Shown here piece by piece: positions 2,873 through 47,950 of a DNA stretch of 64,000 nt (position 1 is its first letter; every line of letters starts with the position of its first letter). Origin of the DNA: a virus. The stretch lies in IMG/VR virus record IMGVR_UViG_3300030422_000020. One strand, written 5' to 3'. Below the pieces are notes generated by a model, which was given only the letters and a program-made list of their open reading frames with translations, was not told the origin of the DNA and made no database searches. Made by a program: the position numbers and the translations under genes.

Positions 2873-3718
2873 ATGGGTTTAACTAATCCTACTAAAAATG
2901 CTTACCCAAGTGCATATGACGTTGTTACTACAACATGTGGTGCTTCTGTAAAAAAAACTAGTGAAACAGTTGCAACTGTGACGATTAGTATTGATTGTCA
3001 TGGCACAGCTGGCTCAGGAGGTGGCCCTGCTCAATACGGCATAGTCGGACAGGTTGGCTATACATGTAATAATAAATCTAATTGGGCAGAGGTCGGCAGA
3101 GGTGTTGCGAATTATGGCGCAACAATTGTCAATGGCTCAAAATCATGGGATATCGAAAGAACAAATGTTGACCAATATTGTGAATGCTGGGCTAAAATTT
3201 GGGGTGAAACGGTTAACGGATATGGCGCGTGGGGTGCCAGCAACGGAGATGGCGCGAGAGTCGGTGTTACGATTCCAGCTCGCCCATATCATGCACATGG
3301 AAATCCAACTTTATCAACTATAAAAACAACTGCACACTACGGTGAAGTCTTAACGTTGTCTTTTGCCAAGAGTGGAACACAGGGCAATGCTAACTTTGAC
3401 CACTTTGAATTGTATCAGGGGGACACTCAGCTATATAAGGGTACTGATACAAGCTATGCAGTAACACCTTCTGATGTTACTGGTGCTAATGGCGGTACTG
3501 TAACATATACTCTTAAAGAAGTGCATGAATGGTATGGTGGATATAAAACAACCACTACTTCTATCTCTATTAAGGTACAGTCTGGTGTTGTCACTATATA
3601 CGATGAAAACAGGGTAAAGCACGTTGGTCTTGTCACAATGTATGATGAGCAGCGTGTCAAGCACTATGTATTGATTACCGCATATGACAAAGATAGTAAT
3701 GCTCATAATGTGGTATAA
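2873..3718 (+). CDS. putative tail fibre / receptor-binding protein
   Basis: In-operon ORF, Gly/Thr/Tyr-rich, sitting between two recognisable fibre proteins. Confidence 0.4.
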   Translation: MGLTNPTKNAYPSAYDVVTTTCGASVKKTSETVATVTISIDCHGTAGSGGGPAQYGIVGQVGYTCNNKSNWAEVGRGVANYGATIVNGSKSWDIERTNVDQYCECWAKIWGETVNGYGAWGASNGDGARVGVTIPARPYHAHGNPTLSTIKTTAHYGEVLTLSFAKSGTQGNANFDHFELYQGDTQLYKGTDTSYAVTPSDVTGANGGTVTYTLKEVHEWYGGYKTTTTSISIKVQSGVVTIYDENRVKHVGLVTMYDEQRVKHYVLITAYDKDSNAHNVV

Positions 3719-3787
3719 TATAGGCAACATAAGTTAGGCTGCGTTCTAAGGAGAACATTATGTCTGAAACATCAGAGCAATCTTTTA

Positions 3788-4573
3788 TTGGCACAATATC
3801 AACCAATGAGATTTGGAGGGGGTAATGATACAAGTCGGTGTCTAACTGACGATCTAAATGCTATGGACACAATTCATGAATCTTTGTCAAGCACTTATGC
3901 CGCGAAGAATCATACGCACTCTGGATATGCTGCTAAAAACCACACTCACAGTTATCTGCCTTTAAGCGGTGGCACACTCACAGGAAATGTCACAACAAGC
4001 AAAGACATTAATATGGGTGTAGAAGCTGCTATACAAGGCAAGACATCAGACGGAACTTTAAAGAATGTATTCGTCCCCGTGTCTGCTGCTGGCAATACGG
4101 CAATTGGATATGATAACTATCAAAAGTCTAACGGAACAACCAATCTATACGGTAACTCTGTTCGTATTTGGAGTAAGACTGGCGGTCTTACTGGTTCTAA
4201 TTATGGAGAAAATAAGGTGTTATGGAGCGGTGCTTTATACGTAAAAGAGGACGCTACTATTACCCTTTCTGGCAATGTGTCTGCACAACCTCATGGCATT
4301 TCTCTAATATTCAGTGCATATGACGTTGCCAATACATCTCCTGTTAATTCTAGCTGGAACTCTTTCTTTATTCCTAAATACGCCGTAGCAAATGATAACG
4401 GCGGTGGGTTCTCATTCATACTTGAGCGTGGTGGAAAGTTCTACAAGAAGTATCTTTATATTAATAATAATGAGATAAAGGGTAATGCTGTAAATAACAA
4501 CTCAGCCCTTTCTCTTCATGGTCAAACAGTTGACAACAGAAACATGGTTCTTCGTTACGTAATCGGTGTTTAA
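3788..4573 (+). CDS. tail fibre protein with tandem A-A-K-N-H-T-H-S motif (two consecutive copies)
   Basis: YAAKNHTHSGYAAKNHTHSYLPLSGGTLTGNV is the His-containing short repeat typical of phage long-tail-fibre shafts. It is the last ORF before a strong terminator. Confidence 0.6.
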   Translation: MAQYQPMRFGGGNDTSRCLTDDLNAMDTIHESLSSTYAAKNHTHSGYAAKNHTHSYLPLSGGTLTGNVTTSKDINMGVEAAIQGKTSDGTLKNVFVPVSAAGNTAIGYDNYQKSNGTTNLYGNSVRIWSKTGGLTGSNYGENKVLWSGALYVKEDATITLSGNVSAQPHGISLIFSAYDVANTSPVNSSWNSFFIPKYAVANDNGGGFSFILERGGKFYKKYLYINNNEIKGNAVNNNSALSLHGQTVDNRNMVLRYVIGV

Positions 4574-5196: not shown

Positions 5197-6393
5197 TTAT
5201 AATAGGAAGTCTTCTGCTTTTGCTACCTCTTCATTCAGTTTTGTCTCTAACAAGTGGGTATATTTCAAAGTGGTAGCATAACTAGTATGCCCCATGATTC
5301 TTTGTATAAACACTGGATCTAATTTCTTTTCAAAACACCTAGTAGCAAACGTATGTCTAAACGCATGTGGATAAATGTGTTCCATTTTTTCTGGCGCTCT
5401 GCCTTCTATTGCCGCATTATATTCTTCTTTTTCGTTGATGTTCTTCAATACCTTTTCAATGTTATGGGATAATGCATATCTTGTTACTGGCGAGCCAAGT
5501 GTTGTCGTAAAAACTAAATCGCCTAACTCTGGTCGCAATCTCCACCTACTTCCAAGCTTTGCTTTGTATTGGTCTTGTTTTACCTTCCAATCTTTAAATA
5601 GTTCTCCTACATTCCCGAAGAATGGAATAGTTCTGTAGCTATTGCTCGTCTTTGGTGTTGTGAGGTATTCCATTTTCTTACCGTCAACATAACCAATGCT
5701 CAGGCTTCTTTGTATTCTGATTGTTTTGTTTTGCCAGTTTATATCTTGCCATTGAAGACCGCTGAATTCGCCTATTCTCATGCCAGTAAGTAATAAGATT
5801 TGGTAAGCTTCATTATAATACTCATGTTCTATTTCATCTAAAAACATCTTCATTTCACGAGAACTCAAAACCCTACGTTCTTGAACAGCTTCATTCTCGT
5901 CTTTTATTGCTATATTAATACACGGATTAGACTTAATGATTTGATTCATAACCGCTATATCCAAACACTCTCTGAGTACGCCAAGTGCTTCTCTCAGCGT
6001 TCTTGCCTTGAATTTACTAAGTAATTCGTTTGTTGTATCTTGCATATTCATATGAGATATATTCTCTATCTTTTTATCTCCTATTGCAGCAATGTATGTG
6101 TTGGATACTTTTCTATGATATGCCCTTTTGGACACTTCCGACTTCAATGCTGGCTTTTTGTATTTTTCAAACCACTCTTCAAACCATTCAGACAGTGTAA
6201 GGTTTGGTCTAATATTCTTTTCGTCTCTTAGAATCTTAATTTTTTCTTCTTCAAAACGTTTCTTTAATGTTGGTAGATGCATATCATAAAGACACAGCTT
6301 AACACCGTTAATCATACACCGCGCTTCAAAACGTTTATCTTTTCGTTGACTGTATCCGCGCCCCAAGTCTTTGCCTTTAAGGTCTTTTCCCAT
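5197..6393 (-). CDS. int: tyrosine integrase/recombinase (398 aa)
   Basis: C-terminal catalytic motifs: LTGMRIGEFSGLQWQDI (box I), HAFRHTFATRC (H-x-x-R) and GHTSYATTLKYTHL (the catalytic Tyr region). Confidence 0.85.
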   Translation of the reverse strand: MGKDLKGKDLGRGYSQRKDKRFEARCMINGVKLCLYDMHLPTLKKRFEEEKIKILRDEKNIRPNLTLSEWFEEWFEKYKKPALKSEVSKRAYHRKVSNTYIAAIGDKKIENISHMNMQDTTNELLSKFKARTLREALGVLRECLDIAVMNQIIKSNPCINIAIKDENEAVQERRVLSSREMKMFLDEIEHEYYNEAYQILLLTGMRIGEFSGLQWQDINWQNKTIRIQRSLSIGYVDGKKMEYLTTPKTSNSYRTIPFFGNVGELFKDWKVKQDQYKAKLGSRWRLRPELGDLVFTTTLGSPVTRYALSHNIEKVLKNINEKEEYNAAIEGRAPEKMEHIYPHAFRHTFATRCFEKKLDPVFIQRIMGHTSYATTLKYTHLLETKLNEEVAKAEDFLL

Positions 6394-10618: not shown

Positions 10619-10883
10619 CCTTACTACCCTCGGTTTCCCGATATTTATTAGGGGAGTAGACTATACAATCTAATCGTTATAATGATTAGTCGGTATTATA
10701 GTCGTTGAAGGTTTCTCCTATTTAGGAGACTTCCCTGCGTTTGATTACCCAATTCTTAACGATGTTACCATACCAAGTCCGTTACTACTCGCCGCAATTA
10801 TATTACTATAATTGTTTGGTTGTTAAGACTCTAAGGGCTTCCCCGCAATTTAACCGATTTAACGTGGACTACATTTTACTTCA
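10619..10883 (-). ncRNA. group I self-splicing intron (265 nt, no ORF) interrupting nrdD
   Basis: P1: exon GUGGAU pairs with intron GUCCAC, with the U.G wobble at the 5' splice site. P10: intron AAUGU immediately 5' of the P1 guide pairs with the exon-2 start ACAUU. Core elements occur in canonical order: P (AAAUUGCGGGGAAGCCC), Q (AAUCAAACGCAGGGAAG), R (CUUCAACGACUAUAA) and S (AGAUUGUAUAGUCUAC). P7 is GACUA/UAGUC. The intron ends in G (..GUAGUAAGG). Confidence 0.8.
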
Positions 10884-13065
10884 ATCCACATGTTCTGCGT
10901 GCCACGCTCATTTTATCATGGTCACGGTTGCCGCAGTTGGGGCATTCCCAAACAAGCTCGCCAGTATCCTTATCCTCTACAATAAGGATCTCCTTGTCCC
11001 AACCGCATACCATGCAATAATCGCTCTTTGTATTCAGCTCAGCATACATAATATTGTCATAGATAAACTGAATAATCTGAATCACTGCATCGATATTGTT
11101 TGTTAGATTTGGCACCTCAACATAGCTAATGGCACCGCCCTGAGAAAGCTTCTGGAACTTAGACTCGATAGCAAGCTTGCTAAACGCATCAATGTGTTCG
11201 GTGACATTAACATGATAAGAGTTAGTAATATAATCCTTATCAGTAATGCCCTCGATTACACCAAAGCGCTTCTTCAAACACTTGGCAAACTTGTATGTGG
11301 TAGATTCAATTGGGCTACCATACGGACTGTAATCAATGTTTTCTGCTTCCTTCCATTGATTGCATTTGTCGGTAAGTGCCTGCATTACCTCAAGTCCAAA
11401 CTTCTCACCAATATCACCGTCTGTATGGCTATGACCAGTCATATATTTTACGCACTCATAAAGACCAGCATATCCAAGTGAAATTGTTGAGTATCCGTTG
11501 CAAAGAAGCTTATCAATCTTCTCACCCTTATCCAAGCGAGCGAAAGCGCCATGTTGCCAAAGGATAGGTGCTACATCAGATGGAGTACCCATGAGCCTAT
11601 TGTGACGCGCCTGTAGTGCCTTGTGGCAAAGTTCAGTGCGCTCATCAAAAAGCTTCCAGAAGTTATCAAAGTCGCCGCCAGACGATAGCGCAACATCAGG
11701 AAGGTTGATTGTCACAACACCTTGATTGAAGCGACCATAATACTTTGGTTTGCCGTCATAGTTCTTAGCCTTTGCAATGTTATCATATCCATTACCACTG
11801 CGGTCTGGGGTAAGGAAGCTTCGGCATCCCATGCAAGGATAGCAATCGCCATTGCCAACCTTTTCGCCTTTAGATAGCTTATATTCCTTCATCATCTTCT
11901 CAGAGATATAATCAGGAACCATACGCTTCGCAGTACACTTGGCGGCAAGCTTGGTGAGATAGAAATACTTATCGCCCTCATGTACGTTATCATCCTCAAG
12001 GACATAAAGCAGCTTCGGGAATGCAGGTGTTACCCATACACCCTTCTCATTCTTAACCCCCTGAATGCGCTGATTAAGAACCTCTTCGATGATTAGGGCA
12101 AGATCGTTCTTGGTCTGCTCATCTTTTGCTTCATTGAGATACATGTTCACGGAAAGGAACGGAGCCTGCCCATTGGTAGTCATAAGCGTTACGACCTGAT
12201 ACTGAATAGTCTGAACGCCACGCCTAATCTCGTCCTTTACCATAGACTCTACAATATCATTGTAATTGACAATCTCGTCATCTGTCTTAGGCTCATGTCC
12301 GACAAACTCGACATATGTATCCATTGCTTGCTTCTTAATCTTCTGTCGGCTCACGTCAACAAAAGGAGCAAGATGTGTAAGGCTAATAGTCTGACCACCA
12401 TACTGGCTTGATGCAACCTGAGCAATAATCTGGGTGGCGATATTGCAGGCGGTGGCAAAGCTATGTGGCTTCTCAATCATGACGTTAGAGATAACAGTGC
12501 CATTCTGAAGCATGTCCTCTAGGTTGATTAGACAGCAGTTATTAAGTGCATTCTGTCCAAAATAATCCATATCATGAAAATGAATGATGCCAGCTTCATG
12601 TGCTTCAACAACATCCTCTGGCAGCAAGAAGCGCTTGGAGATATCCTCACTTACAACGCCAGCCATATAATCACGTTGAGTTGTGACAAGACTTGCGTTC
12701 TTATTTGAATTCTCGTTATTCCAATAGTCGCTTTCTCCACTTAGCAGCTCCATAATTGTTTCATCTGTTGTATTGACCTCACGAATAATCTTGCGCTTAT
12801 AACGGTACTCAACGTAGTGAGAAGCCACATCCTTGCGAGAGGTTGCCATAAGCTTATTCACAACCATGTCTTGAATATCCTCAACGGACATTTTCTCTTT
12901 CTTGATATTTGCGATTTCATTTGAAATCTTACTTGCAATCTTATTTGCGTCTTCGGTAACATCGCCATCGACTTCAATAAATGCTTTCTTAATAGCGTTT
13001 GAAATCTTGTTCTTGTCAAAAGCGTCTTCTCGTCTATTTCGCTTAATAACAAACATCATACGCAT
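10884..13065 (-). CDS. nrdD: anaerobic ribonucleoside-triphosphate reductase, exon 1 (727 codons + 1 nt)
   Basis: N-terminal ATP cone (VIKRNRREDAFDKNKISNAIKKAF). Zn ribbon CMVC-x19-CPNC. Glycyl-radical motif RRTCG sits 16 residues after the last Cys, the same spacing I recall for T4 NrdD (C564 to G580). The track ORF reads on into the intron (..CG-LK*). Confidence 0.9.
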
Positions 13066-36467: not shown

Positions 36468-37061
36468 CTAGCGATAGCCATATGCTCCGAATACAATCAT
36501 ATCATCACCAGACGGAGTTGTAAATGGTGTCTCATACTGCTCTAGTTCATCATTATATCTACACCAATCATCATATGTATAGATACCCAAGTCCCACAGT
36601 CTTGAATCTTCGCGCCTAGACTCAACCTCGTCATCATCGCTATGCTCTAGCATATCAACATCAACAGGAGTATACCACTGCTCATCTTTGTATTTCTCTT
36701 CATACTCCTGTGCGTACTTTTCGATAGCCTGCTTTACTGTTTCTTTATCATAGATTCCGCTTCCAACACCATCAGCAAAACAATGATTGAAAGAATAGCC
36801 ATATCCATCACCATCAACAAAATAATATTCGCCATTATGACTAGAAACCCATTTATTAAAATCGTCTTGTGTCATAATACATAGCGAATGTGTTGAGCTT
36901 GAATTAGTTTCGAACACACCAGCACGAATCTGAATCATTGTACAGCACCTAGTTTCCCTTATAGAAGTATTCGTACTTCTCTTCATCGTGATTTGGGTTT
37001 GGCTCTTCCCAGCTATTGTGCCAATCAGAATCCCACTTCCAGATAGTAGGCTCTGCGGCAT
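36468..37061 (-). CDS. hypothetical protein, tandem paralog A (true start probably the internal MIQIRAGVFETNSSSTHS, ~36938)
   Basis: N-terminal motif IQIR(A/N)GVFETNSSSTHS(L/I)CI is shared with 36949-37530. Confidence 0.4.
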   Translation of the reverse strand: MPQSLLSGSGILIGTIAGKSQTQITMKRSTNTSIRETRCCTMIQIRAGVFETNSSSTHSLCIMTQDDFNKWVSSHNGEYYFVDGDGYGYSFNHCFADGVGSGIYDKETVKQAIEKYAQEYEEKYKDEQWYTPVDVDMLEHSDDDEVESRREDSRLWDLGIYTYDDWCRYNDELEQYETPFTTPSGDDMIVFGAYGYR

Positions 37062-37530
37062 TGCACATCATGCCACCCTCGTCATTGTCATTGCCAGTAT
37101 ACACATGACTATCGCTAAAGAGATAGCGAATCAGCATATCGTCATTGTCAAGCACTGCATGTACGAACTCATATGTATCATATCCGTGGTCGATATAGCC
37201 AACATCAAGCTCGTCCCATTCATTTCCATCACCATAATCATAGTGAACTGTCTTGGGCTTTTCAAACGTATAGGTGATACCATGAGCATCGAGAATATCC
37301 TTTAGCTTATCGAGAAGCCCGTCTTTGCCACTACGGTCAAGCTCATAGATTGCCGTGTATAGATAATCCGCTACATCGGCATCTCCATTCTCCCAGCCAA
37401 ACTCTCCAAAATGAAAGTCAACATGGCAACCATCTGCATCAACAGGTTTCTTGGAGATACAAATGCTGTGCGTACTTGAGCTATTAGTCTCAAATACTCC
37501 ATTGCGAATCTGAATCATATCAATCACCAC
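36949..37530 (-). CDS. hypothetical protein, tandem paralog B
   Basis: N-terminus MVIDMIQIRNGVFETNSSSTHSICI. Acidic, Asp/Tyr/Trp-rich body. Confidence 0.4.
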   Translation of the reverse strand: MVIDMIQIRNGVFETNSSSTHSICISKKPVDADGCHVDFHFGEFGWENGDADVADYLYTAIYELDRSGKDGLLDKLKDILDAHGITYTFEKPKTVHYDYGDGNEWDELDVGYIDHGYDTYEFVHAVLDNDDMLIRYLFSDSHVYTGNDNDEGGMMCNAAEPTIWKWDSDWHNSWEEPNPNHDEEKYEYFYKGN

Positions 37531-37648: not shown

Positions 37649-38065
37649 TCATGCTGCACCCACCTCATTTTTCCAATCAAAATCATCAAATACATTGCCA
37701 ATGACCTCAATGATTAGATTAATGTCTTCGCCAAAGCTATAATACTTAGAATGCTCCCAGTCAAACATGAAATAAGAAGCACGCTCTTCGACATATGCAA
37801 TTTCGACAGTAATCGTATTGCCATCCTCATGTCCTTCTTCCATGTCAACTGTACAGATATCGCCTTCATATAGCTCGACACCATGTTTATCCACAATTCC
37901 TAGGCTTTTGTGGAATAAGTACCTATCTTCAGGCAATTCCTTCAATTTTTGCCATCCGAACACAGCGTTTCCGCAGGTCAGAAGCTTGTTTTCTCCGCAT
38001 GAAATTAGAATTTTATCGGGATCTGCCCATTCACGATTTTTTAGATCGAAAACCCTATATGACAT
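37649..38065 (-). CDS. YopX-like phage protein
   Basis: GIVDKHGVELYEGDIC matches the YopX family core (TGLKDKNGKEIYEGDIV). Confidence 0.45.
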   Translation of the reverse strand: MSYRVFDLKNREWADPDKILISCGENKLLTCGNAVFGWQKLKELPEDRYLFHKSLGIVDKHGVELYEGDICTVDMEEGHEDGNTITVEIAYVEERASYFMFDWEHSKYYSFGEDINLIIEVIGNVFDDFDWKNEVGAA

Positions 38066-38077
38066 ATAAAAACTCCT

Positions 38078-39520
38078 TTAGTGTGCGGCCTTATCTGCTT
38101 CATGTAGAATCATAACACATTGCATGAAATAATCGCCCCACAATTTTAGATATTTATTATACATTTTTTCGTTGTTGTCTCTCTCCCATACGTATGGCTT
38201 CATATGATTTGAGATAAGGGCTGAAACAAATAATGCGTTAATACCAACAGGATAATCAAAGAATAAACTGTCATACGCTCCAACATGTTCGTGCGAATAA
38301 TATCTACAACGATCAATTGGTAATATTGGCGATATTTTTTTCTTAAAAACTTTATTCTCTGTAATATACGCCTTATTGTTTATTATTCTTGATACCGTTG
38401 CCGCATCTACACCAAACATATCTCCAATCTTTTTATTGGTATAACATGCATGTTCTTTAACAAATTTAATTGACTCAACTTCACCAAATGAAAGTTTACT
38501 TTGCCATTTATCAAAACCAGAAACGTTTCTATTTGGATTTGTTTGAAATGCATGATTTTGATTTTGGCTTCTTGTACACCACTCTAAGTTTTTATAAAAA
38601 TTATTTGATTTATTTGAATCAATATGATTAACATCAAGTTTCTTATATTTTTTTAAACACTCTGGTATGTCCAAAAAATGTTCTGCTACAAGTCTGTGTA
38701 TATAACAGCGCTTCTTTCTTGTTTCGCTCCCCAATGTAACGCTTAGATACCCATGTCCATTATCTCTGCCCTTTAATACCTTATTTGTTTTAATATTTTT
38801 TACATTGCCATAATTTGATATAGCATATAAATCCTCAAAATCATGTATTGGAACATAAATCTCTACGTCTTTTTCCATCCTTGTATATGGCTTTCCAACA
38901 TCGTGCAATAGTCCAGCATAATAAAGGGTATCGTTATCTTTAAGTTTGTTAGCAACAGAAACACAATGCTCACCAAGAGTTAATGTATGATGTGGATTAT
39001 CTTGGTCGTAATCCATATAACTATTAATCCACTCGTCAATATCTTTTCTTTTATCGTTCCAGTGATGAATCTCAATGTCATCCCAACCTTCAAACCAATA
39101 AGGAGTTTCCCATTGTTTATACATGCGCTCAATGACATAATCTGGTACGTACCTGTCTCTATTCGCATTATTCCTTAGACATTGCTCATATGGAGTAGCG
39201 GCAATGATACATTCTTTACGACAAGGGATGCGGTTTAGCTCTTGTAGGAAAGCAACGCGCCTTTTAGAGCTTAAATTGCAAGCATCATAGATAACATTAT
39301 TACCTTCTTTTAATGCCGTCTTGATACGCTTATGCAATTCCACAAACAGCTCATGGTTATGAGTTTGGTCGTTGATATCTAGATAAAGTTCTTCTCTTAA
39401 TGCATCTGAGCTGAATACAATATAATTATTTTCCATTGCTAGATTATAAGCAATGGTGGATTTACCACTTGCGGGTAAACCCACCATACACACTAGCACT
39501 GGCTTTGTGCTAGTGTCCAT
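38078..39520 (-). CDS. polynucleotide kinase (P-loop) + HD phosphohydrolase with an in-frame HNH endonuclease and HTH module
   Basis: Walker A GLPASGKSTIA. HD motifs NPHHTLTLGEH and LLHDVGKP, with later YSHEHVGAY and ILHEADK. Between them sit a NUMOD4-like block (ISNYGNVKNIKTNKVL), an HNH block (IHRLVAEHF...VNHIDSNKSNNFYKNLEWCTRSQNQNHA) and an HTH (KKIGDMFGVDAATVSRIINNKAY). Confidence 0.65.
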   Translation of the reverse strand: MDTSTKPVLVCMVGLPASGKSTIAYNLAMENNYIVFSSDALREELYLDINDQTHNHELFVELHKRIKTALKEGNNVIYDACNLSSKRRVAFLQELNRIPCRKECIIAATPYEQCLRNNANRDRYVPDYVIERMYKQWETPYWFEGWDDIEIHHWNDKRKDIDEWINSYMDYDQDNPHHTLTLGEHCVSVANKLKDNDTLYYAGLLHDVGKPYTRMEKDVEIYVPIHDFEDLYAISNYGNVKNIKTNKVLKGRDNGHGYLSVTLGSETRKKRCYIHRLVAEHFLDIPECLKKYKKLDVNHIDSNKSNNFYKNLEWCTRSQNQNHAFQTNPNRNVSGFDKWQSKLSFGEVESIKFVKEHACYTNKKIGDMFGVDAATVSRIINNKAYITENKVFKKKISPILPIDRCRYYSHEHVGAYDSLFFDYPVGINALFVSALISNHMKPYVWERDNNEKMYNKYLKLWGDYFMQCVMILHEADKAAH

Positions 39521-40729
39521 TTATTCACCAGCTTTAAGCAAGAATTTGCGGGAAACGTTCTTGAAACTGCGCTGTCCATCCTGACTACGATACACAAAGC
39601 CCTCGCGTAGACACTTCTTATTGATTACACTCTTGCCATCAGCAGACTGCTTGAACTCCTCAAAGTCATCAGCATCGGGCAAGATATAGTTATCATCAAT
39701 AATAGGCACGAATGGAATATCGTACTCGGCTAGAATCTTCTTTGCTTCGACAGAACCAAGGCGCTCTCCGTCAAAGATTAAATTGAAGGCGGCAAATCGG
39801 CGCTCATCAAGCTTGTACTTGTTGCCCTGTACGGACTCACCATACGTCTCACCCTGTAGTACAACATGCTTATGGTTGCGCTTCTTTGCAATGTCCTTAA
39901 GAGCATCCTCGACATTGTATTTGAATGCCATTTCCCAGTAAACGTTTCCGATGCCAGACATATCAGAAACAAAGTTCTTCTGATCTGCATCCATCTGGCG
40001 AACATTACGTGAACACACACCGAAATCAGGCTTACGACCAGTCAAATCAAGGAAGAATGTAGTCGAAGTGCCATCAATCTTCTCGGTCACGACATAAGGA
40101 TTCTTATCCTCAAGCATGAACATGACATTCTCAATGCGGTCTTCATCCGTCTTCTTAATCCACACAGGCCAGTTCTTAGGATTATCCTTCTTGCGACCAA
40201 AGAAAACGAACAGCAACTTGCGACCCCATGCACGCTTCATCAGCCACTTCCACCACTTCTTCTTTGCGAGCTTGGTATTACGTGCGCACATATTATTGTA
40301 CTTGGCATTGGGATTAGAATTAGCCTTACGAGCATTATCCTCGGCTACATAATACTTAATACCAAGCAGATTTGTCACGTCCTCGTGGATAGCATACTCC
40401 TTATTATCTGGAAGAATGCTCATCGGAAGAAGCAAACCCTGCGAAACTACATTAAACTTTCCGAGCTTATAGGTCTTTACCTTAAACTTCTTTGGGCGCA
40501 AAAACTCAGACCACTCTGTCTCTGGTAGCAAAGAATCAATCTCAAAGAAGACAGCCATGTCGCCAGCATTAAACTCATGCTTGCGAATAATTACGTTCCA
40601 ACCTCCAACATGAGCAAGCTCAATGTTATCAGCCTTTTCAATTGGCGTGATACTATCAACTGTTACAGTATATGCAAGCATACGCTCGCCGTTTTTGTCT
40701 AGCATATCGAACCTTTCTACTATGCTCAA
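39521..40729 (-). CDS. putative ATP-dependent RNA ligase
   Basis: Nucleotidyltransferase motif I VVTEKIDGTSTTFF (KxDG), a later VVLQGETYGESVQG block, and adjacency to the Pnk/HD gene. Confidence 0.5.
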   Translation of the reverse strand: MSIVERFDMLDKNGERMLAYTVTVDSITPIEKADNIELAHVGGWNVIIRKHEFNAGDMAVFFEIDSLLPETEWSEFLRPKKFKVKTYKLGKFNVVSQGLLLPMSILPDNKEYAIHEDVTNLLGIKYYVAEDNARKANSNPNAKYNNMCARNTKLAKKKWWKWLMKRAWGRKLLFVFFGRKKDNPKNWPVWIKKTDEDRIENVMFMLEDKNPYVVTEKIDGTSTTFFLDLTGRKPDFGVCSRNVRQMDADQKNFVSDMSGIGNVYWEMAFKYNVEDALKDIAKKRNHKHVVLQGETYGESVQGNKYKLDERRFAAFNLIFDGERLGSVEAKKILAEYDIPFVPIIDDNYILPDADDFEEFKQSADGKSVINKKCLREGFVYRSQDGQRSFKNVSRKFLLKAGE

Positions 40730-45731: not shown

Positions 45732-45807
45732 TGGAGCCGATGACAGGACTTGAACCTGCAACAGACTGATTACAAATCAGTTACTCTTCCAATTGAGTCA
45801 CATCGGC
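45732..45807 (-). tRNA. tRNA-Thr(UGU)
   Basis: GCCGATG tg ACTC aattggaa GAGT a ACTGA-TTTGTAA-TCAGT ctgtt GCAGG-TTCAAGT-CCTGT CATCGGC t CCA. Confidence 0.8.
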
Positions 45808-45826
45808 AATTGTACAATTGATTGTG

Positions 45827-45900
45827 TGCGCCATGTAGGATTCGAACCTACGGCCTACAGATTAGAAGTCTGTTACTCTATCCAGCTGAGTTAATGGCGC
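45827..45900 (-). tRNA. tRNA-Arg(UCU)
   Basis: GCGCCAT / ATGGCGC acceptor. Anticodon arm ACAGA-CTTCTAA-TCTGT. T arm GTAGG-TTCGAAT-CCTAC. Confidence 0.8.
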
Positions 45901-45951
45901 ACACAATCAATTGTTATATATAAAAGATATTATACCATATCTTGATATATC

Positions 45952-46036
45952 TGGTAGGGAAGAAGGGATTCGAACCCTCACGCTCTATGAGCAAGAGATT
46001 TTAAGTCTCCGATGTCTGCCATTCCATCACTTCCCC
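45952..46036 (-). tRNA. tRNA-Leu(UAA), type II
   Basis: Acceptor GGGGAAG/CTTCCCT + A + CCA. Anticodon arm GGAGA-CTTAAAA-TCTCT. Long variable arm. T arm GAGGG-TTCGAAT-CCCTT. Confidence 0.7.
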
Positions 46037-46042
46037 GAGTTT

Positions 46043-46117
46043 TGGTATCGGCTACGGGAATCGAACCCGTGTTTCCACCTTGAAAGGGTGATGTCCTAAC
46101 CGTTAGACGAAGCCGAC
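46043..46117 (-). tRNA. tRNA-Glu(UUC)
   Basis: Acceptor GTCGGCT/AGCCGAT + A + CCA. Anticodon arm TCACC-CTTTCAA-GGTGG. T arm ACGGG-TTCGATT-CCCGT. Confidence 0.75.
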
Positions 46118-46208
46118 ATTTGGTGCCGCATCTAGGTAACGCTCCTAGCCAGTCATAGACATTGGATTTACAGTCCAACCCTCGTCTTTAAAGGATTACT
46201 GCGGCAAT

Positions 46209-46285
46209 TGGTGGACACAGTAGGATTTGAACCTACGACCTTATGCGTGTAAAGCATCTGCGCTAACCAGCTGCGCCATGCGTCC
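46209..46285 (-). tRNA. tRNA-Val(UAC)
   Basis: Acceptor GGACGCA/TGTGTCC + A + CCA. D arm GCGC-agctggtta-GCGC. Anticodon loop TTTACAC. T arm GTAGG-TTCAAAT-CCTAC. Confidence 0.75.
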
Positions 46286-46286
46286 G

Positions 46287-46362
46287 TGGTGGAGTCGGTG
46301 AGAATCGAACCCACGACCTTGGGATTAAAAGTCCCCTGCTCTTCCGACTGAGCTACGACTCC
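46287..46362 (-). tRNA. tRNA-Lys(UUU)
   Basis: Acceptor GGAGTCG/CGACTCC + A + CCA. D arm GCTC-agtcggaa-GAGC. Anticodon loop CTTTTAA. T arm GTGGG-TTCGATT-CTCAC. Confidence 0.8.
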
Positions 46363-46366
46363 ATTA

Positions 46367-46441
46367 TGGTGGGGGATGAGTGAGTTGAACACTCTTCTAG
46401 AGCTTATAAGGCCCTTGCCCTAACCGTTGTGCGAATCCCCC
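46367..46441 (-). tRNA. tRNA-Ile(UAU) (AUA reader)
   Basis: Acceptor GGGGGAT/ATCCCCC + A + CCA. Anticodon arm AGGGC-CTTATAA-GCTCT. T arm GAGTG-TTCAACT-CACTC. One D-stem mismatch. Confidence 0.6.
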
Positions 46442-46472
46442 ATAGCCATTATAATAGACGGTAACGTTCCAT

Positions 46473-46553
46473 TGGCAGTGGCAAGATTTGAACTTGCATA
46501 CAGGAGCTACCTGTTTTGCCCATTAAAGCATAGCGTATACCGATTTCGCCACA
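46473..46553 (-). pseudogene. tRNA-like element (type II architecture) with a disrupted anticodon arm
   Basis: Good acceptor (GGCGGTG/CACTGCC), T arm GCAAG-TTCAAAT-CTTGC and variable-arm hairpin CAGG-TAGCT-CCTG. No 5-bp anticodon stem can be drawn in ATGCTTTAATGGGCAAAA. Confidence 0.3.
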
Positions 46554-46559
46554 CCGCCA

Positions 46560-47950
46560 AGTCACATTACCGTCTATGGAATATATACTTTTCAAGCATG
46601 GTCTATATGCTCTTATCGAGTACGATGACATCTCAAAAGAAGAGCAAATTGAACGACTACTCGACTCTGGCCTGCCCATTCTGTCGATGACAGATTCTGG
46701 AAATAAATCTGTTCATACCATACAACAACACGCAATGATAATATATACTCCATAGACGGTGGTAGCTTACTAAAGTCCTCACCAGCTACCAGAGGGGTCA
46801 CTTATTTTAAATACCGTCCGCGCTGGCAGACCTTCCAACGCTACCGATTTTACGCAACGGTGTACGCTTAACAGTCCGCTTCCTCCGTTAAGACAAGGGG
46901 TAACATTACGCCGTTACCATGCGCCCAAGACTTGTCAGGTAGCTATCTCCATCGTAAACCTTGGGACTGAGCGTTGACGGAAAATGAAAACGTAAGTCAA
47001 ATAACTCACACGCAAGGAACAACCGTTAAACCAAAACAGAAAGGAGTCAAAACATTTTCCGTCTACGGAATCGTACCGTACCATCTGCGTTAGTGAAATC
47101 AACCAAAAGACTAACACAGAATCGAACCTCGCTTTGTCGGTCAAGCAAACCAACGCGAAAGATTGTCTCAGGCCTTCGCCTTACCTTCATAAAACGTAGT
47201 GGTAATTCGGTAACATAGGAAATGGAGCTGAGACACAGGGAGCGACCCCATATCTTTCCATCCCGACTTTACGTCAATCTATGGCTGGATTGGCTACCAA
47301 CAACTTTCACCCACCATTCAGCATATTAATCTTCTAATACAATCCAACTTTGGGCTACTCGTACTCGCGTCTGGTCTTATAGCTGATTACCAGCATCAAT
47401 TGGACAACTATCTTATGGCACTCCAAGCGATTGGCATAGCTGCCACACTACCCTCTACTTGGTTCAATGGAATATATTCCATATCTATTGCGATAGCAAC
47501 CAGTTAGCGATACCATTTTCTTGCGTTTCATCACAGCGCCGTGTCTGCTCGGTTGAGATTTTCCACCTCTTCTACCAGAAGCCAGTTACCTACATCTGGC
47601 AAAGCCTACCTATGGGGTATCCTCCATAGTGGGACTCCTCGAACACGCCCATGACCACGTGGAGTCGTGAATACACATGGTTGAAACAATCCTTCGCGTT
47701 GATTTCTCAACGCTGATACTCTATGTAAATATCAAGGTGCAACTGGAAACTTCCGTTTCTCTGTGTCAGATATTATAGCATCTAACTTTATCAGTTGCAA
47801 GAACTTTTTTGAACTTTTTCCATCTTCTTTTCTCAAGGTGCTCATCAGATTGATCTGCGATTTGTCCGCGTCTCTTTCTGACATCAACTATATTACATGG
47901 TGCCTATATCTATGTCAACAACTTTTTAGAAAATTTTGAAAACTTTTTTC
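46560..47950. ncRNA. candidate large structured non-coding RNA region (~1.4 kb, ORF-free, GC-elevated) adjacent to the tRNA array
   Basis: No ORF over 72 aa on either strand. Composition is visibly more G+C-rich than the flanks. Long-range complementary segments are present (ACCGTCTATGGA 46569-46580 pairs with TCCATAGACGGT 46749-46760), along with tRNA-T-arm-like GAATCGAACC at 47120. Confidence 0.3.

Follow-up and report, generated by a model that had tools for sequence, protein, structure and literature searches.

Homing endonucleases are usually held to invade conserved coding sequence only inside a self-splicing intron or an intein, and otherwise to land between genes. Arsenault, Gosselin and Gogarten (2025, PMC11855218) have described two insertions in actinobacteriophage DNA methylases that leave the host frame open, lack the features of inteins and introns and, by prediction, remain in the protein. 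One of them, the ShiLan domain, is disjunct in its distribution, which indicates homing; the other, the 'lone LAGLIDADG' insertion, is apparently inherited vertically. In phage Aeh1, mobE splits the gene nrdA (PMC3045599). Here, we analyzed a stretch of viral DNA of 64,000 nucleotides (nt) (IMG/VR record IMGVR_UViG_3300030422_000020; hereafter the window), in which the gene of an RNA-repair enzyme, a Pnk-type kinase/HD phosphohydrolase (Pnk/HD), is interrupted in frame by an HNH endonuclease with a helix-turn-helix (HTH) segment. The insert is best explained as a splicing-independent homing endonuclease gene that is translated as a domain of its host protein, and from the comparisons described below we give this reading a probability of about 0.75.

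An earlier note, made from the letters of the window alone, had placed the endonuclease inside the HD domain in one continuous frame. The list of open reading frames (ORFs) and the Pfam matches agree with a single frame of 480 amino acids (aa) that holds both the Pnk-kinase/HD and the HNH/HTH parts, and all the motifs quoted in the note were found (HHT, LLHDVGKP, HRLVAEHF, NHIDSNKSNNFYKNLEW, QNQNHA, YSHEHVGAY and ILHEADK). The note had described a block of about 200 aa between the HD motifs; its position between HD motif II and YYxHE stands, while its size is 186 aa by alignment.

A homologue search with the 480-aa protein gave 1996 matches at E ≤ 0.001. The 120 best homologues and the window protein were compared with each other (121 proteins), an alignment that the earlier note had recommended. 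The insert was present in 20 proteins, always at the same position, and missing from 101, and relatives were found in two lengths, long (473–497 aa) and short (about 300–314 aa). The insert-free homologues fix the boundaries at aa 217–402 (38315–38872), so that the proposed domain-level, in-frame insertion of a homing endonuclease into an RNA-repair enzyme was borne out. At this site, insert-free proteins read ...HDCGKPFCKTFK-NGKGEVT-DIAHYYGHE..., and in the window protein ...HDVGKPYTRMEK is followed by the insert (D217 VEIYVP ... SPILP402) and then by IDRCRYYSHE.... The insert takes the place of a hairpin tip of 6–7 residues (NGKGEVT) between HDxGKP (HD motif II) and HYYxHE. The spacing from HD to YYxH was exactly 27 residues in 67 of the 70 insert-free loci; because this spacing is fixed, the insertion site can be described as a short loop bracketed by two highly conserved coding stretches. 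The Pfam match of the HD domain (aa 178–238, E = 1.3e-7, 32.4 bits, cut-off 22) covers only profile positions 4–49 of 116, which indicates that the domain is interrupted. The content of guanine and cytosine was 29% in the insert, 37% in the remainder of the Pnk/HD gene, and about 41% nearby.

By its alignment and predicted fold, the insert is a complete I-HmuI-type homing endonuclease (NUMOD4, HNH and HTH modules) minus its own start and stop codons. The NUMOD4-like, HNH and HTH segments had been named in the earlier note. The Pfam scores of NUMOD4 (E = 1.2e-10) and HNH_3 (aa 273–321, E = 3e-7) both exceed the curated cut-offs, and the HTH matches at aa 341–390 are weak. The insert aligns along its whole length with free-standing NUMOD4/HNH proteins of 160–190 aa. 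Their N-terminus, Met-Glu-Ile-Trp, matches Val-Glu-Ile-Tyr of the insert, and their C-terminus, ...RIINNKxW-KHI-stop, aligns with ...RIINNKAY, after which the insert has 16 extra residues (ITENKVFKKKISPILP), a part of the linker without counterpart in the free-standing relatives. Because this alignment runs from end to end, the start and stop codons are all that the insert lacks. A further copy of the endonuclease was sought elsewhere in the window, and none was found.

The best solved relative of the insert in sequence was I-HmuI (PDB 1u3e, E = 5e-10). Modelled alone, the insert gave a confident structure (predicted local distance difference test, pLDDT, 87.7) in which the HTH region forms three high-pLDDT helices, and 1u3e was its sole significant fold match in PDB (E = 7e-9, 179 columns). 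In the full-length AlphaFold model, beta-strands 214–218 and 403–407 flank the insert, and the pLDDT of both HD halves is mostly above 90 (81–96 in the C-terminal half). The return linker has a pLDDT below 50 in both the full-length and the insert-alone models. A Foldseek search with the full-length model gave kinase-domain matches only and did not reveal the packing of the HD domain around the insert.

Closely related alleles bear on the mobility of the insert. Compared with the insert-free allele L001, the window is identical from 39520 to 39152, has a lone mismatch at 39151, and has one mismatch over 38180–38078, while about 30–40% of the positions differ in the insert-adjacent flanks (39115–38873 and 38315–38181). 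Because the divergence from L001 is almost confined to the flanks of the insert, the window carries a replaced patch at 38181–39115, which is the classical signature of co-conversion. The insert is also missing from a second insert-free allele, L002. The insert-bearing allele L083 has a backbone about 91.6% identical to that of the window, and its differences are distributed in the opposite way: 46 mismatches lie over 39490–39104 and 4 over 39092–38243. Inside the patch 4 of 850 nt mismatched, versus 60 of 593 nt outside it (Fisher's test, p = 1e-19). Between the window and L083, synonymous divergence (dS) amounts to 0.5 for the kinase domain, against 0 for the insert. The tract ends of the window and of L083 differ slightly, so the present ends do not trace back to one shared event.

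More distant pairs were also compared. The genes of P0050 and P0040 lie in different genome neighbourhoods; their host parts share about 60% nucleotide identity and their inserts 90–98%, and the change in identity is abrupt, near aa 205 on one side and near aa 410 on the other. The insert and host identities were 99% versus 61–80% for P0040 and P0078, and 93% versus 49–57% for P0050 and P0078. Across the 20 clusters with the insert, insert-free proteins are usually the nearest relatives of the kinase domain and of the extreme C-terminus (the kinase domain of P0003 is 95% identical to that of the insert-free P0116), while the insert-proximal flanks are nearest to other insert-bearing proteins. 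The locus thus behaves as a mobile homing element does: it is sporadically present at one site, the inserts are more alike than their hosts, and the flanks are co-converted. Judged by these comparisons, the insert is demonstrably mobile, with recent horizontal movement between related phages.

It could be proposed that the HNH/HTH block is instead a domesticated domain, for example a nucleic-acid targeting or nicking module, which would make it a stable architectural variant and not a selfish element. Its presence in at least 20 clusters and the strong purifying selection on the insert would fit this proposal. However, near-identical alleles differ in the presence or absence of the insert, the inserts resemble each other far more than their hosts do, and co-conversion tracts lie around them, which makes the proposal very improbable. 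The domesticated and the selfish readings are not mutually exclusive, and both can hold.

The earlier note had allowed that the contiguous architecture might prove to be that of an established family. The nested architecture does recur, in no fewer than 20 protein clusters with identities as low as 42%, but as sampled here (20/121) most of the family is insert-free, and the insert-bearing form is a polymorphic minority and not an established, fixed family. In GenBank phages, a megablast search found nothing matching the locus, and a tblastn search of the protein against the same phages (50,697 records) gave no record covering at least 80% of it; because of the latter result, we take the nested architecture to be absent from these 50,697 records. 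Two Bacillus phage matches that read 'polynucleotide kinase | homing endonuclease' were rejected, since in both a free-standing endonuclease gene lies upstream of an insert-free gene. In IMG/VR, the best 80 loci included only insert-free relatives. Because the data are metagenomic contigs, the continuous frame might be thought to be an assembly or sequencing artefact in which a Pnk/HD gene was joined to a free-standing HNH gene. This is hardly credible, as the same junctions were found in independent samples and assemblers (ENA, Logan, JGI) and the P0001 cluster alone has 127 member sequences.

Embedding in other hosts was explored among the 150 best representatives of 1.84 billion proteins, where the internal full-length matches were inspected in part. 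Among those inspected, this endonuclease clade was not found nested in any other host protein; they were either Pnk/HD proteins (P0242, N-terminally truncated) or tandem multi-HNH proteins (P0241, P0292, P0311 and P0317). The matches to the insert also included P0002 and P0019, which are already-known Pnk/HD members. Many of the best insert matches are long proteins with 2–6 tandem NUMOD4-HNH modules in one ORF (P0241 has 966 aa and 5 copies), and this appears to be an unusual multi-endonuclease architecture.

The possibility that the insert is spliced out was examined at both the protein and the RNA level. Consistent with the earlier note, which had seen neither intein junction residues nor a group I core, the Pfam families Hint, Intein_splicing and Hom_end_hint had no match at E ≤ 10 on the insert and 16 aa on either side, and no conserved Cys/Ser/Thr or His-Asn was found at the junctions of the 20 insert-bearing homologues. 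The first residues of the insert are D-V/E/T/K/I-E, and at the 3' junction P-I-L-P is followed by variable pairs (ID, VE, QK, DL and others); the junction residues vary as V/E/T/K/I on the 5' side and as C/A/S on the 3' side. A Hint fold of about 130 aa would have no room, because the NUMOD4, HNH and HTH modules and the short linker fill the 186 residues. No group I or group II intron was matched in Rfam at E ≤ 10 over 37900–39700. The frame runs through both junctions without a stop in all 20 homologues, and substitutions are biased to third codon positions along the entire insert, including its first 34 and last 19 codons. The ratio of nonsynonymous to synonymous substitution rates (dN/dS) in the insert was 0.08–0.11, and by these measures the insert is under purifying selection in the host frame.

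Three other ways of expressing the endonuclease were considered and rejected. A hidden ORF in another frame, of the kind seen in ShiLan, does not exist here, since each of the other five frames of the insert has 8–24 stops. An internal start was suggested by an ATG of the window at M214 with AAGG just before it; no start codon is conserved in the homologues, the codon aligned with Met1 of the free-standing relatives being GTA, GAA or GTC, and the 3' end has no stop. An internal start was therefore rejected as a general mechanism. Slippery A-runs near the 3' junction (AAGAAAAAAATA) were regarded as possible frameshift sites, and they are missing from P0050 and P0040. Because no removal signal was detected, the insert has no start of its own and the other frames are closed, production of the endonuclease solely within the host polypeptide is the simplest reading.

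A different explanation is that the insert is removed by an unrecognised route, such as divergent or novel protein splicing, self-cleavage or RNA-level excision, so that the mature Pnk/HD enzyme would be insert-free. Well-characterised homing endonucleases within essential coding regions all depend on splicing (PMC3943268), and the P-I-L-P at the C-terminal junction, which is conserved and without counterpart in the free-standing relatives, could mark a processing site (both Pro and Ile are found in 20/20 insert-bearing proteins, and Leu in at least 16/20). This explanation is unlikely in view of the missing Hint match and the lack of space for that fold, the variable junction residues, the absence of an intron model match, and the coding-type substitution through both ends of the insert. 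Thus, the insert probably stays in the mature protein.

The catalytic residues were then compared between the two forms of the protein. In the kinase, no homologue that covers K20 (Walker A GKS), D39, R42, R88 or R121 departs from these residues. H178, H206 and D207 of the HD domain are invariant in the 20 insert-bearing and the 101 insert-free proteins; H410 and D476 are invariant in the insert-bearing set, in which H439 is found in 19/20, and the same catalytic residues are conserved in the 101 insert-free proteins. The HNH core, DVNH.D.NK.NN..KNLE..RS.N..H, is invariant in 20/20 insert-bearing proteins. Preservation of the catalytic residues and of the 3' frame argues, without proof of activity, that the interrupted enzyme is still under selection. 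We infer that the interrupted HD enzyme still works and that the fused nuclease is active.

It has to be weighed whether the host gene is merely an expression platform, in which the interrupted HD phosphoesterase is dead and the loss of 3'-end healing is tolerated, while the kinase may still work. RNA-repair cassettes belong to the accessory genes of phages, about 10 residues separate the insertion from the HD metal-binding motif, and one truncated relative (L089/L090, see below) has no C-terminal HD half, all of which would agree with a dead domain. However, the frame at the 3' junction and H410, H439 and D476 are kept down to 42% identity, which would be unexpected if the C-terminal half were useless, and the dN/dS of this half is 0.17–0.27 in the measurable pairs. 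We therefore consider a dead HD domain improbable.

The preferred reading, a splicing-independent endonuclease gene translated within its host protein, can be put as follows. An I-HmuI-type endonuclease gene would have lost its start and stop codons and become lodged in frame at the tip of a beta-hairpin of the HD domain. It would be transcribed and translated from the signals of the host gene as one 480-aa polypeptide, with no intron or intein, and the endonuclease module would hang from the HD domain on a flexible linker of about 16–19 residues ending in PILP. In a cell that also contains a related phage whose allele is uninterrupted, this allele would be nicked or cut by the tethered endonuclease near the conserved coding sequence of the HD motifs, where the target site presumably lies. 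Recombinational repair off the insert-bearing allele would then copy the insert with a few hundred flanking bases. We lean towards the further view that this is a distinct lifestyle of homing endonucleases, in which a permanently retained, catalytically active domain sits in a permissive surface hairpin and homes without splicing.

Several points weigh against this reading. An insert-bearing copy (P0083, in L089 at 3001–4450 and in L090) stops inside the endonuclease at 273 aa, and downstream of the stop neither an HNH remainder nor the C-terminal HD half was detectable; it looks like a decayed or rearranged copy. Because this copy has no C-terminal HD half, the host gene can be lost as an outcome of the arrangement. 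The HNH core (aa 293–343) is modelled with confidence only in the insert taken alone; its pLDDT in the full-length AlphaFold model is below 50. The I-HmuI–DNA crystal structure reportedly shows an elongated enzyme with distant termini; with its two ends fixed to a single hairpin, such an enzyme may be hampered in DNA binding unless the linker (about 16–19 residues) makes up for it. The invariant PILP motif at the 3' junction is not accounted for by this reading. Rfam models miss some introns, and a novel excision or proteolytic mechanism would be outside the reach of sequence analysis. Finally, all the compared sequences are metagenomic. As a separate observation, the neighbours of the truncated copy include a Thg1-like gene, an RNA ligase gene and a TnpB gene.

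The features of the locus are collected in Table 1. Judged by its domains, the host protein is a phage end-healing enzyme (5'-kinase and HD 2',3'-phosphoesterase) and the partner of the adjacent sealing RNA ligase. The kinase domain matches, in sequence and fold, the kinase domain of Clostridium thermocellum Pnkp (4gp6/4gp7) and mammalian PNKP. The ligase has Pfam matches to the PHA02142 OB domain and RNA_ligase and belongs to phrog_968; its match to NCBIfam RNA_lig_DRB0094 (E = 2.8e-32, 112 bits) is under the curated 151-bit cut-off of that model. The downstream neighbour of the Pnk/HD gene encodes a YopX protein.

Table 1. Coordinates of the nested endonuclease, its host gene and the adjoining ligase gene in the window.
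Feature	Position	Strand	Basis
Replaced patch: insert and co-converted flanks (~243 nt on the 5' side, ~134 nt on the 3' side)	38181..39115	(-)	Comparison with L001 and L083
In-frame mobile insert, aa 217-402, 558 nt, 186 aa	38315..38872	(-)	Alignment with insert-free homologues, junction codons
NUMOD4 beta-sheet DNA-binding module, aa 220-263	38732..38863	(-)	Pfam E 1.2e-10; aligned to I-HmuI residues 6 onward
HNH catalytic module, aa 273-325 (HRLVA...DVNHID.NK.NN.YKNLEW..RS.N..HAF)	38546..38704	(-)	Pfam HNH_3
C-terminal HTH DNA-binding module, aa 341-383	38372..38500	(-)	Weak HTH Pfam matches; helices in insert model
Return linker, aa 384-402, NKAYITENKVFKKKISPILP, ending PILP	38315..38371	(-)	Beyond the C-termini of free-standing homologues
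Whole Pnk-kinase/HD ORF with nested endonuclease	38078..39520	(-)	Single ATG-started frame, 480 aa; ORF list, Pfam
P-loop polynucleotide 5'-kinase domain, aa 9-138	39107..39496	(-)	AAA_33 E 2.7e-21
HD domain, N-terminal half, aa 172-216 (H178, H206-D207, GKP)	38873..39007	(-)	Pfam HD, HDIG
HD domain, C-terminal half, aa 403-480 (YYSHE, H439, D476), and stop codon	38078..38314	(-)	Alignment with insert-free proteins
Upstream neighbour: RNA ligase, DraRnl/DRB0094 type (N-terminal OB fold and nucleotidyltransferase)	39521..40729	(-)	

Phage RM378 polynucleotide kinase/3'-phosphatase, Deinococcus DRB0098 and Runella HD-Pnk likewise join a Pnk-type P-loop kinase to an HD phosphoesterase and have a DraRnl-type ligase as neighbour. 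The order of domains differs, since DRB0098 has the HD phosphatase first and then the kinase, and the window protein has the kinase first. No endonuclease insertion in enzymes of the RM378, DRB0098 or Runella type is reported in the open-access literature covered.

Other mobile endonucleases were seen in the same cassette. In the close relative L002 (3730–6000), an intein bearing a LAGLIDADG endonuclease (PF14890 and PF03161) lies within the neighbouring RNA ligase, whose length is 756 aa; the ligase of the window has 402 aa and is intein-free. In Bacillus phages PJN02 and FADO, a free-standing homing endonuclease gene lies between the RNA ligase gene and an insert-free Pnk/HD gene. Because of the embedded HNH, the L002 ligase intein and the PJN02/FADO gene, the RNA-repair cassette is a hot spot for at least three kinds of mobile endonuclease. 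At the N-terminus of the RNA ligase (40415–40729, minus strand), the identity between the window and L001 falls from about 92% to about 55–60% upstream of about 40415; this drop over the OB-fold part points to a further recombination breakpoint inside the cassette.

Two overlapping paralogous ORFs (36468–37061 and 36949–37530; 36468–37530 of the window, minus strand) share the N-terminal motif 'IQIRxGVFETNSSSTHS'. In P0113, a 490-aa protein of another phage, a homologue of this protein is fused C-terminally to an insert-free Pnk/HD protein, and this fusion hints at a functional link between the 'IQIRxGVFETNSSSTHS' protein and the repair enzyme. An insert-free Pnk/HD relative with 56% identity occurs on a 190-kb scaffold of Roseburia sp. 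1XD42-69 (L094), which points to hosts among the Lachnospiraceae.

About 6 kb from the RNA-repair cassette lies an array of 8 tRNA genes (45732–47704, minus strand; Thr-tgt, Arg-tct, Leu-taa, Glu-ttc, Val-tac, Lys-ttt, Ile-tat and one more), whose anticodons read A/U-ending codons. A full-length ROOL RNA adjoins it (47151–47704; RF03087, 293 bits, E = 2.6e-66). An 88-nt tRNA-like gene (46472–46559, minus strand) scored 40.5 bits with the Rfam tRNA model, and ARAGORN gave no definite anticodon for it ('aa' at position 36). The window also has a tyrosine integrase (5197–6393, minus strand) and a large replication module (Pol III alpha, RecD2, NrdD and DnaB-like), and these genes suggest a temperate phage. 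The anaerobic ribonucleotide reductase NrdD is one 729-aa ORF in the window (10876–13065); in L087 (8917–11339), the phage with P0004, it was called as two ORFs (397 and 306 aa) about 300 nt apart, and no Rfam intron was found in the gap at E ≤ 1.

The element appears to bypass the requirement for splicing by using a permissive hairpin beside an active-site motif, where it would be made by ribosomes within the host protein. The evolutionary evidence of ongoing homing is unusually clear, as the co-conversion tracts could be mapped to the nucleotide in three alleles. If the arrangement is general, it would offer a splicing-free route by which selfish nucleases turn into new domains of cellular and viral proteins, and surveys of introns and inteins would systematically overlook a class of mobile elements. 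Because annotation pipelines label such genes only 'kinase' or 'HNH endonuclease' (the source names are 'predicted kinase'), the nested element goes unrecorded. The locus would be a tractable test system, with a 480-aa ORF, two assayable host activities and a known uninterrupted target allele. Such a system could address how large an insertion an enzyme fold can bear, whether a doubly tethered nuclease can still find its site, and how a selfish nuclease becomes a permanent domain.

I-HmuI, the HNH nicking homing endonuclease of Bacillus phage SPO1 (1u3e), shares with the insert the order NUMOD4, HNH, HTH and a similar size (174 aa versus about 170 aa before the linker). However, I-HmuI is a separate ORF, located in a DNA polymerase gene within a self-splicing group I intron, whereas the insert is an intron-less internal segment of the host polypeptide. 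HNH inteins (Dalgaard et al. 1997, as cited in bioRxiv 10.1101/2025.01.02.630785) are likewise mobile and place an HNH in frame near catalytic motifs. Inteins carry a Hint splicing domain, begin with Cys/Ser, end in His-Asn and are followed by a +1 nucleophile; in the insert of the window none of these features was detected. Free-standing phage homing endonucleases, such as the seg/mob genes of T4-like phages and mobE of Aeh1, also home without introns and with co-conversion of flanking markers, and the PJN02/FADO gene targets the same RNA-repair cassette in cultured Bacillus phages. These are separate genes that lie between host genes or split one of them into two polypeptides, whereas the host gene in the window stays one ORF.

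The ShiLan domain is the nearest precedent in the open-access literature covered. Its HNH is out of frame and its in-frame product is an unrecognisable loop, whereas the HNH of the window is complete and in the host frame. The lone LAGLIDADG insertion is apparently vertical, whereas the insert of the window shows recent transfer. In both methylase insertions the host gene and the endonuclease family differ from those of the window. Thus, as far as the sequences indicate, the locus differs from the precedents considered here by an HNH that is complete and in the host frame, by an RNA-repair host, and by direct evidence of ongoing homing.

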